64,000 nucleotides of DNA from an uncultured Acidobacteriota bacterium (GCA_963741955.1 CAVUKB010000004.1:480001-544000); one strand, 5' to 3'. Positions 36,101-40,238 are shown, numbered from the stretch's first letter. The notes: generated from the letters alone by a model not told the origin. Translations and numbers: made by a program.

Positions 36101-36536
36101 CTCGGGATTCGAGCGGCGAGCGGCGAGCGGCGAGCGGCGAGGAGGACGCGCCGATCGAGAGCTGCTCGTCGTCTCCGGATCGAATCACGTCGCTCGATCT
36201 CATGAGGGTGACTTCGGCGCCGACCAGGGGACGAAGTCCTGCCTTGCGTGCGGCGCCGTAGAAACGCGGCGCGCCATAGACGCCGTTCCGGTCGATGAGA
36301 GCCATGGCAGGGAGGTCGTGCCGCGTCGCCGCGTCGACCAGATCCTCGGGGAGCGACGCGCCGTCGAGGAACGAGAAGGCGGAAGCCCCATGCAGTTCGA
36401 CGTAAGGCCGGACGTTCGTCCGTCCCGCCGGCGGCTTCCACGAGCGCTGGCGCAACTTCTCCTTGCGCGCTCCGGCGGAGCCGCTCATGCGATGCCCGAG
36501 GGCATCGAGATCACGGGATGGCGGGGTGCGGTTCAT
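33141..36536 (-). CDS. dnaE2: Error-prone DNA polymerase DnaE2 (ImuC)
   Basis: YVELH..SAFSFLDGAS.PE, GRGSAANS.VCY, PDIDLD, PRHLGQHSGG, WDKDD, YGFPESHAASFA, RQRPGTAKG, terminal SHDFH (SRDFH-like); start could be 36488. Confidence 0.96.
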   Translation of the reverse strand: MNRTPPSRDLDALGHRMSGSAGARKEKLRQRSWKPPAGRTNVRPYVELHGASAFSFLDGASLPEDLVDAATRHDLPAMALIDRNGVYGAPRFYGAARKAGLRPLVGAEVTLMRSSDVIRSGDDEQLSIGASSSPLAARRSPLESRASSPEPRASLRLVPDTPPFDESGTRLTLLVENRTGYRNLSKLLTAGALDRPKGEAAYDWDLIAAHSEGLHCLTGSEEGPVAHALSAGGLDAARDVMMHLQSLFPGRLHVELQRHHRRDEEHRNQALLELARSLRLPIVATNGVRYARPVDKELHDVLTCIRHGTNLDTAGRLLAAHRERHVRSAAEMSDLFADLPEALDATVALASRLDFTLADLGYRFPDYPLPPGETPMSLLRQITWNGAGARFRPLTARAQAQIERELAMIEKLDLAGYFLIVWDIVRFCLESNIMVQGRGSAANSAVCYALSITAVDPVKMDLLFERFLSEERGEWPDIDLDLPSGDQRERVIQHVYRKYGKHGAAMTANVITYRERSAAREVGKALGFSPEQIERFAKQIGQWTFGEIRDKVSELPTEMKEAGLDTDSARVRHLVRLWLRIQNLPRHLGQHSGGMVMAGGRLDEVVPLEPASMPGRVVIQWDKDDCADLGLIKVDLLGLGMLAAMEEAIPMIREHEKVEVDLAHLPQNDPGVFRMLNDADTVGVFQVESRAQMASLPRNAPKNFYDIVVQVAIIRPGPIVGGMIRPFFDRRQGRVPVEYPHPSLEPILKRTLGVPLFQEQLLRIAMVAAGFTGGEAEELRRAMGFKRSVERMTEIEKKLRDGMSARGITGKTQDDIVKSITSFALYGFPESHAASFALIAYASAYIKARHPAAFYASLLNAWPMGFYHPATLIKDAQRHGVKVFPIDVNQSGWMCRWENGGVRLGLRFIRGIHQTEGKRIEEEQSKGGFEDVQDLARRCRLRDDQMTKIAYSGALAGFGLARREALWQAARAARDAGPLFDRTERDGAHSPLPQMTPFSETLADYDSMNLTAGPHLMQYFRGELRKKGVLTAAELLRGRDGATVRTAGAVIVRQRPGTAKGFVFLTLEDETGMSQAIVNPGLFKEHRPMIVGSAGLVIEGVLQKNGGQPSVKAERFWPLEVYAHVESHDFH
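36082..36144. repeat. In-frame 9 x 7-nt tandem repeat inside dnaE2
   Basis: cgaggct cgggact cgaggct cgggatt (cgagcgg)x4 cgaggag. Confidence 0.85.
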
Positions 36537-36539
36537 GGT

Positions 36540-36582
36540 GAAAAGATGAATGCAGAATGCAGAATTCAGAATTGAGAAAAGA
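36540..36582. repeat. Left arm of a 43-bp inverted repeat (GAATGCA heptamers)
   Basis: 40/43 identical to the reverse complement of 37424-37466. Confidence 0.9.
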
Positions 36583-36615
36583 AACCGGGGCTCGGGGCTC
36601 GAGGCTCGGGGTTAG

Positions 36616-36792
36616 CCCGCATTTCTCACACCATCTCGTCGCGAGGAGGCGGAGAGTGGCCTGGATGCAAGGCGCGCCTCGCTTCGGCGACGAAGGCATA
36701 GCGGTGACTATGTCGAGGAGCCGAAGAGGGGCTCAACGCAGCAGACAGGCCGCTATCCGGCTCCGCAGCAGAGATGGTGTGAGAAATGCGGG
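36616..36792. mobile_element. MITE-like family B, full copy (177 bp)
   Basis: 22-bp terminal inverted repeats CCCGCATTTCTCACACCATCTC / GAGATGGTGTGAGAAATGCGGG; flanked by TTAG and CTAG. Confidence 0.88.
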
Positions 36793-36968
36793 CTAGGGGT
36801 TGTGCGTATCTCCCTTTCGTCATTTCCTGCTGCGAAACTCCGGCACCCCTTCGGGGGGCGACGAATGATCGCGCTCCTCTCTTTCCGGTGGCGTCTGCAT
36901 TCTGCATTCGTCCTTTCCTGGATTTCATGCTGAAAGCACAATTGAGAAAAGAAACCGATGACGTGGCT

Positions 36969-37406
36969 CTACACACTACTTTGTGCGTTCTTCCTTTGTG
37001 ATGTCGTTCGGACGATCGAGGTCAGAATCGCGACGAGCTCATTAGACTCCTGAAGGATCTCAGCGATCCTTCGCGAAGCGACGATGCCGGTTGCGGCGAA
37101 GAGGCGGAGCCAGTAATGAGATTCGCGGGCTTCCTTCAATGCGATGCGGCATTTCGAGATGAAGTCTGCACGGCTCTGTGCGGCGTGAGCTTCTTCCAGA
37201 TTTGCCCCGAGTGAAGTCCCTGATCGAAGGAGTTGCGCCGCCAGCGTTCGCGGTGCTTTGGTTGTGCTCATGTACTGATAGAGTTTGACTATTCTGCATG
37301 CGAACTCGAACGAACGCTCATAGATGTCTCTCGGCTTTTCAGGGGCATTCGCTTGGATCTTGCGATCACCGGTCAGTTCATCCATCCCGTGACTCTCTTT
37401 CGTCAT
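36969..37406 (-). CDS. Four helix bundle protein (23S rRNA IVS protein family, TIGR02436/PF05635-like)
   Basis: ERSFEFA.RI..L, QLLRSGTS.GAN.EEA..AQSRADFISK..IALKEARES.YWL; lower GC than neighbouring genes. Confidence 0.9.
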   Translation of the reverse strand: MTKESHGMDELTGDRKIQANAPEKPRDIYERSFEFACRIVKLYQYMSTTKAPRTLAAQLLRSGTSLGANLEEAHAAQSRADFISKCRIALKEARESHYWLRLFAATGIVASRRIAEILQESNELVAILTSIVRTTSQRKNAQSSV

Positions 37407-37423
37407 TTCCTTCGTCTCTCTTC

Positions 37424-37466
37424 TCTTTTCTCAATTCTGCATTCTGCATTCTGAATTCGTCTTTTC
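37424..37466. repeat. Right arm of the 43-bp inverted repeat
   Basis: tcttttctcaattctgcattctgcattctgaattcgtcttttc; starts 2 nt after the imuB stop. Confidence 0.9.
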
Positions 37467-37468
37467 TA

Positions 37469-39166
37469 TCAGTCGTAGATTCCGTCCACATACCACTCTC
37501 CCTCCGCCCGCGCTCTGTAGACGCGATAGATTCCGCCCCCCACCATCTCGACGTCCCAGTAGTCGCGCTCGACCGGATCGTCCGACCACCATCCTTCCTC
37601 CAGTGACCACGGTCCCGAGGCGACGCGAACCGCACCGTGGATCTCGAGAGGTCGCGGCGTGTATCCCTCCTGCTTCGAGACATTGCGGATGGTGTGGATC
37701 TCGCGGAGGTGAAGATCCCCAAGGGCGAAAGTACCGCCGTTCGAAGGAGCGGCACCGTCGCTGATCACTTCGACCGCCAGAGGAGGACGGAAGACGCGGA
37801 CGGCGAGGAGACCGCGCCAGCGGCGCGGAGCGCGGCGGACGGAGGGTGGTGACGGGGGATCGTAGCGTGCGATTCCGTAACGCTCGGGACGCCACGCATC
37901 GATGGTGCGGGGAGTGCCGACCCGGTCCGCCCCGACCATTGCCGCGATCTTCGCCACCGTGGTGGCGAGGAGGTCCGGGGAGAGCTCCGACGGCCCGAAA
38001 ATCGAGAGCTGACCCTCCCGCGGGCGGTCGGGATGGGCGATGAAGGTGAAGCCGGTGACCGGCGCTCCGGGTGGAGCGGACTCGAGGTCGAGCCGTATCA
38101 GGGTGAGGATGGTCTTCACGTCACGGGTGGGAGCCGGAAGATCGATCGCCCGGACATGGAATCCTTCCGGCTCGAGCCGCAGCGCGACTTCGATGGTTCG
38201 ACAACTGTAGCCATGACCCTCCATGCGGCGCATCAGGCGGTCGAGCGCCGCATTGGCCATGAAGAGAAACGGCTCGAGAGTGACGATCGGCCACTCGAAG
38301 TCCATTCCTTCGCGGAATTCCGGAGGAGCCTGCCGGGGAATCAGCGGCCGCGTGTCGATCCCCCGCGAGCAGCAGTGCAGTGCGCGTCCCAGCTCTCCCA
38401 GACGGGTGGCCACCTCACCTTCGGGGAGATTCGCCAGCTGCCCGATCGACTCGATTCCCCATCGGCGCAACGTCGCGGCAATCTTCATTTCCGGTCCCAG
38501 ACGCTCGAGCGGAAGGGGAGCGAGGAACTGGGCCTCCTCGCCCGGTGCGACGATGTGCGGCGACTTCGGCAGCTCCGCCGCAATCCGCGCTCCCAGCTTG
38601 CTCGACGCGATGCCGACCCGTCCGGGGAGTCCCGCCGCACGCATCGCGAGGAGCGCTGCCTGGGCCAGGTTGTGCTCGTGGGGGAGCGGGGCTCGAGGCT
38701 CGGGGCTCGAGGCTCGCTTTTCTGGATCATCAGTCGTCGGTTCTGGATCTGAGACACGGGATGAATCGATTCGTGACGTTTTCTCCGAGCTCCGAACCTC
38801 GAGCCTCGAGTCCCGCGCTCCGAAGTACCGCTCCATTCCGCTGATGTCGAGAAACACCACCCCTCCCTCTGCGTCCTCCACACGTGGCGAGAATTTCTGG
38901 GCCGCTTCGAAGAGCGCCTCCTGGGCCGCGCGCTCGCATTCGGCGTCGCGCCCCCGTGCGATGAGCTTCGGAAGGATCGCCCGTGCCTGAGGGAGCGACA
39001 TTCCCGGCGTGATCCCCGCCTTTCGCGCACGACGCGTCGCCGAAGAAATGTGGGCCGCGCTCCCGTTCCCTTCCACGATCACCACCGCTTCCTGCAGGAG
39101 CTCCGGCTCGGCGCGGAGTCTCGCGGCGAGAGGAAAGAGAGGAACGAAGAAGCAGGCGAGTCGCAT
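37469..39166 (-). CDS. imuB: Y-family DNA polymerase-like ImuB
   Basis: ARKAGITPGMSLPQARA, FSPRVE, LDISG, LAPLPLERL, WGIESIGQLA, GPW..EEGWW...ERDYW, WYVDGIYD. Confidence 0.88.
   Translation of the reverse strand: MRLACFFVPLFPLAARLRAEPELLQEAVVIVEGNGSAAHISSATRRARKAGITPGMSLPQARAILPKLIARGRDAECERAAQEALFEAAQKFSPRVEDAEGGVVFLDISGMERYFGARDSRLEVRSSEKTSRIDSSRVSDPEPTTDDPEKRASSPEPRAPLPHEHNLAQAALLAMRAAGLPGRVGIASSKLGARIAAELPKSPHIVAPGEEAQFLAPLPLERLGPEMKIAATLRRWGIESIGQLANLPEGEVATRLGELGRALHCCSRGIDTRPLIPRQAPPEFREGMDFEWPIVTLEPFLFMANAALDRLMRRMEGHGYSCRTIEVALRLEPEGFHVRAIDLPAPTRDVKTILTLIRLDLESAPPGAPVTGFTFIAHPDRPREGQLSIFGPSELSPDLLATTVAKIAAMVGADRVGTPRTIDAWRPERYGIARYDPPSPPSVRRAPRRWRGLLAVRVFRPPLAVEVISDGAAPSNGGTFALGDLHLREIHTIRNVSKQEGYTPRPLEIHGAVRVASGPWSLEEGWWSDDPVERDYWDVEMVGGGIYRVYRARAEGEWYVDGIYD
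38683..38821. repeat. In-frame palindromic heptamer insertion inside imuB
   Basis: Arm ggagcggggctcgaggctcggggctcgaggctcg (38683-38716) is an imperfect inverted repeat of 38786-38821. Confidence 0.75.
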
Positions 39167-40209: not shown

Positions 40210-40238
40210 AACTTAGGCGGTAAAGAGGCGTAAGTCAA
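40210..40238 (-). promoter_or_regulatory. Putative sigma70 promoter of imuA-imuB-dnaE2 with a direct-repeat operator candidate in the spacer
   Basis: TTGACT-N17-TAAGTT on the minus strand; spacer contains CGCC-N7-CGCC. Confidence 0.6.

Follow-up and report, generated by a model that had tools for sequence, protein, structure and literature searches.

The window analysed here is a 64,000-nucleotide stretch of DNA from an uncultured Acidobacteriota bacterium (GCA_963741955.1, CAVUKB010000004.1:480001-544000), with positions counted from its first letter. Between the imuB and dnaE2 genes of a mutasome operon it carries a 927-bp spacer (36540-37466), which holds a four-helix-bundle gene of the PF05635 family between complementary arrays of 7-nt repeats. 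The data as a whole are best explained, with a probability that we put at about 0.55, by an old cassette resembling the intervening sequences (IVSs) of 23S rRNA, which resides at the imuB/dnaE2 junction as a tolerated passenger. We document directly its architecture, recurrence, age, empty sites and predicted fold, and propose a mechanism by which it might be tolerated.

The outermost arms of the spacer (inverted repeat I1, 36540-36582 and 37424-37466) are 43 nt long and match at 40/43, as a preliminary description of this DNA had stated; they are 93% complementary and 841 nt apart. The placement that it gave also holds: 2 nt separate the imuB stop from one arm, and 3 nt separate the other from the dnaE2 ATG. 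Both gene ends are supported, because relatives' alignments run to ImuB residue 565, its last, and begin at DnaE2 residues 1-6. The repeat scores 63.9 bits and is far beyond chance, since only 2.2% of 500 random sites in the same genome reached 30 bits in an identical pipeline. In the sense of the operon, which lies on the minus strand, the 5′ arm (37424-37466) consists of tandem GAATGCA/GAATTCA heptamers and belongs to a dispersed family with tens of blastn matches; the outer 3′ arm is at 36540-36582.

The four-helix-bundle gene (37406-36969, minus strand, 145 aa) runs in the same direction as the operon. Its product matched PF05635, the 23S rRNA IVS protein family, with 77.5 bits against a cut-off of 33.8 (E 1.1e-21; residues 27-129, profile positions 4-105 of 106), and the solved structure nearest to it in sequence is PDB 2RLD chain A (E 5e-27, residues 26-136), from an entry with five chains of one sequence. 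The low GC content previously remarked on was borne out, at 0.54 for the gene compared to 0.64 for the locus, and 0.41-0.60 in the spacer compared to 0.64-0.72 in its flanks. By blastn, the region 36927-37407 was unique at the DNA level in its own genome. We likewise found no transposase, and no Pfam match besides PF05635 among the open reading frames (ORFs) of the 927-bp spacer. Within 36300-37700 there was no Rfam match at E ≤ 1, and a consensus scan of the same interval gave no sigma-70-like promoter and no minus-strand terminator.

The spacer is not, however, the single 927-bp block that had been described. We dissected it by repeat finding and by a blastn comparison of 36500-37500 with its own genome (346 high-scoring segment pairs), and the inner arms and blastn matches revealed at least three elements: a gene cassette (36927-37466), a gene-less hairpin element of GAATGCA flavour (36540-36917), and a dispersed repeat nested in the latter. 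In the operon sense the order is arm, four-helix-bundle gene, degenerate arm, and then arm, loop with the nested repeat, arm. The gene cassette is closed by a degenerate inner 3′ arm (36927-36952, minus strand; I4), 26 nt long and 88% paired with 37424-37449, which is also a direct repeat (D3, 87%) of 36557-36587. The 5′ arm of the gene-less hairpin (36894-36917, minus strand; I6) is 24 nt long and 92% paired with 36540-36563. The 43-nt repeat is the pairing between the outermost arms of these two adjacent units, and it brackets 927 bp because the gene-less element, with its nested repeat, adjoins the gene cassette.

A loop segment of the gene-less element (36812-36893, with the blastn-shared stretch reaching 36909) had matches of 62-83 nt at 89-99% identity to about 10 gene-less GAATGCA-armed elements. 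The nested repeat (36613-36795) is 183 bp long, resembles a miniature inverted-repeat transposable element (MITE) and has perfect 25-nt terminal inverted repeats (I3, 36613-36637 and 36771-36795). The genome contains 67 full-length copies of it at ≥85% identity (for example at C10:261306-261487 and C5:175223-175403, C numbers being contigs), many of them lengthened by an additional 12-nt inverted repeat (CGCGCAGACTCC). It had no Rfam match, and no consistent target-site duplication was seen across the flanks of 40 copies. Between it and the outer 3′ arm lies a short heptamer array of a different dispersed flavour, (GGGGCTC)n (36586-36611; D13). Such gene-less GAATGCA-armed elements, of about 270 bp, lie at C6:133778-134049, C7:637421-637690, C9:52587-52853, C5:656795-657087 and C1:114255-114462. 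The loop of this element forms three short GC-rich hairpins with GAA loops; the element could represent either a structured RNA or a cassette that has decayed.

A search for ImuB over 41 genomes, none of the same genus, gave 30 loci, whose junctions were delineated by tblastn, ORF calling, Pfam and inverted-repeat scans. A PF05635 gene follows imuB in 11 of the 30: the present locus, L009 (two copies), L011, L017, L019, L020, L021, L023, L028, L032 and L033. The arm words at these junctions are GAATGTT, GAACGAT, GAACGCA, GAATTTC, AGGGATC or GAATGCA, and despite this difference between genomes the arms of each cassette are 88-100% complementary to each other. Tandem-heptamer arms surround at least one copy at every PF05635-bearing junction, so relatives that keep the gene here also keep the arms, a point on which the preliminary description had made its reading depend. 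With ImuB divergences of about 40%, each of the 12 junction ORFs is intact and scores above the Pfam cut-off.

The remaining junctions include both other contents and empty sites. The spacer of L016 (genome G005) holds a GIY-YIG gene in 77-nt, 95% inverted repeats beginning with TTGTCATCCTGAG; that of L025 (G014) holds a PIN-domain gene with a 69-codon ORF upstream, toxin-antitoxin-like in appearance; and L024 has a 117-aa ORF without family assignment. The spacer is minimal or absent in L012 (GTGA overlap), L034 (TGATG overlap) and L037 (stop, short spacer and candidate GTG start), the two overlaps being empty sites of the kind that the preliminary description had called for. When the boundary found here (TGA-TA-block-ACC-ATG) was compared with the TGATG of L034, a comparison of a single junction, there was no duplication past the shared A. 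Spacers without a gene were present in L014, L036 and L015. The last of these (G001) is 350 nt long and is a nested gene-less hairpin, with (GCAGATG)n and (AGACGAG)n arms around ~25 units of (GAAGAGT)n. At 10 loci no dnaE2 was found in the downstream DNA examined (L010, L013, L018, L022, L026, L027, L029, L030, L031 and L035).

Two arrangements elsewhere in the operon were also observed. L038 and L043 (G026:C26) are sister PF05635 cassettes at imuA|imuB and imuB|dnaE2, with heptamers AGGATTC/AGGAACC and AGGGATC. In L048 (G040:C24:27743-29448, locus ~586-1128), dnaE2 itself contains a (GTGGCCC)n-armed PF05635 cassette, placed between the residues that align to 898 and 902 of the DnaE2 studied here. 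The dnaE2 frame is open across all 543 inserted bases, with the four-helix-bundle gene in another frame; the predicted DnaE2 would either contain a 181-aa insert or depend on some form of processing.

How old is the cassette? In a tree of 117 PF05635 proteins (five were excluded for stops or length: L088, L119, L134, L150 and L151), the junction genes of family f1 group in a single clade, inside which a LigB-adjacent subclade is placed. Their pairings broadly match the ImuB tree (G000 with G006; G009 with G022; G015, G020, G023 and G008 together). From this agreement between the two trees, the imuB-dnaE2 cassette of this genome is old and vertically inherited in the family. It does not fit the picture of a recent mobile insertion. 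Uninvaded or otherwise-filled junctions within the family are accordingly losses or replacements. The relatives in which the cassette has long resided are a group of soil Acidobacteria. Among metagenome-assembled genomes (MAGs), related sequences were found in L154 (labelled Acidobacteria gp7) and in L156 (labelled Thermoanaerobaculia), which has the order imuA, imuB, four-helix-bundle gene, dnaE2 with AAATGCA-type arms. Proteins 43-61% identical occur, away from mutasome genes, in MAGs labelled Bacteroidota, Ignavibacteriaceae, Clostridia, Verrucomicrobiales and Sedimentisphaerales.

The cassette belongs to a widespread class. PF05635 searches of the 41 genomes gave 116 regions over the cut-off, in addition to six loci in the genome studied here, and 120 loci had enough flanking sequence to be analysed. 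A flanking inverted repeat of ≥30 bits was present at 103 of the 120, compared to 11 of the 500 random sites (2.2%). The best arm period among the 103 was 7 in 73 loci, 8 in 15, 6 in nine, 9 in five and 10 in one. The cassette gene was oriented as both neighbours in 55 of 102 loci and opposite to both in five, with neighbour orientation judged from the longest open frames of ≥100 codons per side. The distance from the upstream stop to the arm was ≤10 nt in 42 of 82 loci, but the choice of frame bounds this range by construction, and we did not use it as evidence.

Fifteen of the 122 PF05635 genes lie in or beside imuA, imuB or dnaE2. Assuming ~4000 junctions per genome, about 0.1 of the 122 genes would fall by chance into one of the operon's three positions, so the concentration is real, although kin are not independent and only the five or more separate events should count towards it. 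The mutasome-operon genes come from at least five separate clades: f1; G027; G026 (both junctions); G036 (imuA|imuB); and G040. At least four independent insertions have thus struck the same operon besides that of the f1 lineage. Other cassette lineages are syntenic across genera, after a LigB-family gene (five genomes), a pyrimidine-nucleoside phosphorylase (PYNP) gene (four) and a GDE_C gene (two).

The arms belong to repeat families that are dispersed through the genome. Tandem units of the GAATGCA type were found at 76 sites, where they are often paired into hairpins of 89 to ~270 bp. Tandem arrays of period 7 number 526, compared to 133, 6 and 26 for periods 6, 8 and 9 (~4 to 90 times more); the unit AGGATCG alone accounts for 134 arrays, and AGCCCCG/AGCCTCG, the units of the flavour seen at 36586-36611, for 78. 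Of the six PF05635 genes over the cut-off in this genome, five are flanked by inverted arms, in line with what the preliminary description had proposed to look for, and each of the five uses a different dispersed family: (AGAGGCG)n; (GGGGTCA)n; (GAATGCA)n; a repeat of 160-290 copies containing ATCGTGG/ATCGAGG; and a 150-nt repeat of ~80 copies. The heptamer units that are most frequent in this genome coincide with those of its resident cassettes. No armed gene here has the (GGGGCTC)n flavour, and the unarmed gene, at C4:5264, clusters in the protein tree with an (AGGGGCT)n-armed relative. Proteins that are near kin share a repeat unit, as the tree shows for AGTGCTG, ACTGAGG, CGTCTTGGG, AACGATG and a CGGGCN hexamer clade.

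We followed two flavours across genomes. With a threshold of ≤2 mismatches in 21 nt, GAATGCA-type arrays were found in 15 of 25 genomes of the family and in none of 16 outside it; the two richest genomes, G010 (272 matches) and G016 (288), yielded no GAATGCA-armed gene. AGTGCTG arrays were abundant in eight genomes, six of which hold the cognate gene clade; in G009, where the clade is absent, AGTGCTG matched 456 times. A strict rule of one gene to one flavour was therefore rejected. The link between dispersed arrays and cognate genes is real but not obligatory.

What would the arms do at the RNA level? The sense RNA (966 nt) was predicted to fold with the outer arms closed in both the minimum free energy (MFE) and centroid structures (z = −6.47; none of 20 shuffles was as stable), in agreement with the stem that had been proposed. 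We suggest the following course of events for the preferred reading, that of an IVS-like passenger. The spacer holds a member of a widespread class, described in the ORF-bearing IVSs of 23S rRNA, in which a PF05635 gene is flanked by two arrays of short tandem repeats (7-mers for the most part) that are complementary to each other. In an ancestor of the family, one such cassette would have inserted at an overlapping TGATG-type stop/start of imuB and dnaE2, and would then have been inherited with the operon. The protein would have stayed intact since, while the sequence of the arms shifted by lineage with their complementarity kept, and in the present genome the cassette has beside it another element of its heptamer flavour, which lacks a gene and carries a MITE-like repeat. 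Its own promoter and terminator were undetected by consensus scan, and the cassette is presumed to be transcribed with the operon. On the operon RNA the arms would zip into a helix of ~43 bp, whose base would bring the stop of imuB and the start of dnaE2 within 5 nt of each other. A ribosome terminating on imuB could then melt the base of the helix and expose the dnaE2 start, so that the original translational coupling would be preserved and dnaE2 masked while imuB is untranslated. Helices of this kind are, moreover, cut by RNase III in the rRNA versions. With coupling preserved and a helix of the RNase III type, the cassette would therefore be a tolerated passenger. The four-helix-bundle protein appears to be selected for a role of its own, and the most probable one is to bind its repeat arrays.

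Several points weigh against this reading. Co-transcription, a stem in vivo, RNase III sensitivity and imuB-dnaE2 coupling are what we infer; a search for sequencing runs gave three rows of soil-metagenome DNA from one study and no RNA. A ~43-bp helix with a structured loop of 880 nt could equally reduce dnaE2 expression or sever the message. In the 94 ungapped arm duplexes 3131 pairs are Watson-Crick, and the mismatches are G·U in 57 cases, A·C in 53 and of other types in 151. Selection for a stem in mRNA should enrich G·U, and as these duplexes showed no excess of G·U over A·C (57 versus 53, p = 0.78), arm complementarity cannot be credited to it; it may instead be kept by a process at the DNA level or by a shared binding protein. 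The interpretation offered in the preliminary description is partly supported: the IVS-like cassette without a transposase stands, the single block does not, and we made none of the observations that it had named as refuting. Long residence is not special to the mutasome operon, because the LigB and phosphorylase lineages are also stably syntenic. The first of the four-helix-bundle copies in G008 (L152) has no arms, as an exception to the rule given above, and the counts over 41 genomes include two unpublished genomes, G022 (L028, L133) and G030 (L018, L099).

The symmetry of the mismatches is compatible with explanations in which RNA plays no part. One is that the cassette is a mobile unit at the DNA level, analogous to a REPtron, with arms that are binding-site arrays or a hairpin or cruciform substrate and an RNA stem that is a by-product; the four-helix-bundle protein, from a ring-forming family, or a host factor would recognise the arms and would maintain, copy and disperse both cassettes and gene-less hairpins. 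We regard this as possible, if on balance unlikely. It would account for the strand-symmetric mismatches, for five armed genes in one genome each with a different dispersed family, for the over-representation of period-7 arrays whose top units are those of resident cassettes, and for near-kin proteins having the same repeat unit across genomes. It also fits the AGTGCTG-rich genomes, six of eight with the cognate clade, the five or more phylogenetically independent insertions in the mutasome operon, and the 43-61% identical proteins in MAGs labelled as other phyla. However, the link of gene to array is not obligatory (G010 and G016 for GAATGCA, G009 for AGTGCTG), PF05635 lacks a known catalytic motif, this junction shows no target-site duplication, and co-inheritance alone accounts for flavour tracking the protein tree. 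A bolder version, which is rather doubtful, makes PF05635 proteins dedicated partners of heptamer arrays, with a ring of subunits that reads about five 7-nt units and maintains or spreads the cassettes and gene-less hairpins. If true, this would define a class of mobile elements without a transposase, repeated settlement in the SOS-type mutasome operon would time expression of the four-helix-bundle protein to DNA damage, a very large 'unknown' family would gain a function, and the excess of 7-mer repeats, noted long ago, would be explained.

The symmetric mismatches are also what would be expected if the arms had no function and were local by-products of slippage-prone repeats and quasi-palindrome correction around a decaying selfish gene, which a dispensable operon would tolerate. 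The predominance of transversion-type mismatches (151/261), as unit shuffling predicts, and the mosaic, repeat-invaded state of the present copy also suit such a view, but it is made highly improbable by the intact state of all 12 junction ORFs, over the Pfam cut-off at ~40% ImuB divergence, by the recurrence of the architecture in 103 of 120 loci, and by an orientation relative to neighbours that is strongly non-random. That same intactness across a family could instead reflect a role for the protein as an accessory like Avd, working with ImuB and DnaE2 in error-prone synthesis as a functional member of the operon, and so could the presence of 15 of 122 PF05635 genes in or beside imuA, imuB or dnaE2; PF05635 is, moreover, held to be homologous to Avd (PMC10053308). 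Such a role is highly improbable, as the insertions in the operon come from at least four distant PF05635 clades with sister clades beside LigB, PYNP and ABC transporter genes, and as the junction of other relatives has a GIY-YIG gene, a PIN gene or nothing, those with overlapping imuB and dnaE2 managing without the gene. The protein also did not match bAvd (PF22296) at E ≤ 0.001. The sole RVT_1 match of the genome lies on contig C11, which is not that of the operon, and a role for the gene in a diversity-generating retroelement (DGR) was excluded.

The operon itself was defined by ORF calls and Pfam, in the order imuA, imuB, four-helix-bundle gene, dnaE2 on the minus strand. The first gene, imuA (40122-39166), encodes a RecA-like protein of 318 aa (PF00154 RecA, 43.3 bits), and its adjacency to imuB is kept in relatives. 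The imuB gene (39166-37469, stop codon 37469-37471) encodes 565 aa (PF00817 IMS, 69.1 bits), and dnaE2 (36536-33141, ATG at 36534-36536) encodes 1131 aa with PHP, DNA_pol3_alpha, finger, HHH_6 and OB domains. A RecA-like ImuA, a Y-family-like ImuB and DnaE2 are thus co-directional, in an order that is kept in relatives and characterises an imuA-imuB-dnaE2 mutasome. Upstream of imuA, a promoter-like TTGACT-17 nt-TAAGTT (40210-40238, minus strand) lies inside TTGACTTACGCCTCTTTACCGCCTAAGTT, which is similar to sequences 5′ of dnaE2 in L014 and L036 (TTGATTTACGCTTTATTTTCGCCTA; TTGTATTTATGCTTCATTTATGCATA) and may be the SOS operator of the group. The LexA box GTTCN7GTTC, for which 67.5 occurrences would be expected in the window, was matched 71 times, never upstream of imuA, and was dropped.

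For annotation, the 927 bp of 'intergenic' DNA are three stacked repeat elements and not regulatory DNA of the operon. To our knowledge, PF05635 is a large family without known function, and heptamer repeats in bacteria, though noticed decades ago, have lacked an explanation; the present data link one to the other quantitatively within a single bacterial family. The imuB/dnaE2 junction provides a natural series, in which the arms change yet stay complementary, some sites are empty, one holds a gene-less remnant and others have been taken over by different small genes. It suits tests of insertion, of persistence and of the effect on a translationally coupled gene pair. Repeated colonisation of an error-prone polymerase operon may modulate the supply of DnaE2 and hence stress-induced mutagenesis.

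Among known systems, the REPIN/RAYT system (REPtron) consists of a single-copy gene between inverted short repeats that are also dispersed as hairpin pairs, with gene copies paired with different repeat families. The cassette shares the placing of a gene within inverted copies of a dispersed short repeat, with different families for each gene copy. In contrast to a REPtron, it encodes a four-helix bundle and not an HUH/Y1 transposase (its sole Pfam match being PF05635), its repeats are tandem arrays and not single palindromes, and co-occurrence of gene and repeat is partial. Another parallel is the coat-replicase interaction of phage MS2, where long-range RNA pairing couples cistrons. On the preferred IVS-like reading, the cassette would be similar in masking a downstream start in a helix that is opened by upstream translation, but the helix would come from an inserted element. 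With Avd of DGRs it has in common a related four-helix-bundle fold and family (PMC10053308), and a gene beside an error-prone polymerase. It differs in having no reverse transcriptase and no template or variable repeats here, in giving no PF22296 match, and in its heptamer arms, which are not a DGR feature.

Intergenic heptamer arrays have been reported as GGGAATC in Xanthomonas, GGGGA(C/T)T in Nostoc and TAACTGA in Beggiatoaceae, in tens to hundreds of copies, with 70-75 convergent inverted pairs in Xanthomonas (PMC4692102, PMC4679880). The arrays described here differ from these in bracketing one gene family and sharing flavour with it; a term search of the two reports found none of S23, four helix and intervening in PMC4692102, and none of S23, four helix, intervening sequence and IVS in PMC4679880. 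We found no published description of PF05635 genes in heptamer arms outside 23S rRNA, in a search that did not cover subscription journals or supplements.

The closest likeness is to the ORF-bearing IVSs of 23S rRNA (Coxiella, Leptospira, Brucella and the Xanthomonas-type S23p), in which an element of ~0.43-0.55 kb has long terminal inverted repeats that enclose, in their loop, a PF05635 ORF (PMC4990558). In Coxiella burnetii, the IVS that encodes S23p is described there as ending in a stem of 28 bp, within which RNase III cuts, and as having tandem GACAGAT heptamers ahead of its ORF; a mobile origin without a transposase has been proposed for such IVSs, and the Coxiella authors argue that S23p is decaying (PMC4990558). 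The present cassette likewise has heptamer-built arms (43 nt, 93%) and a stem predicted in both MFE and centroid folds. Unlike the rRNA elements, which sit in helix 45 of 23S rRNA, it lies between the protein-coding imuB and dnaE2 of an SOS-type polymerase operon. RNase III excision has been shown for the rRNA elements and would be a prediction for this one. Its protein, in contrast to S23p as the Coxiella authors see it, has been conserved throughout a family. With a mechanism that is still inferential, the cassette is nevertheless a real feature, the residence in a protein operon of the known ORF-bearing IVS design. To that design the present analysis adds a fixed-address lineage across a family, the symmetric-mismatch result, two cross-genome flavour tests, and a stacked, MITE-invaded state.

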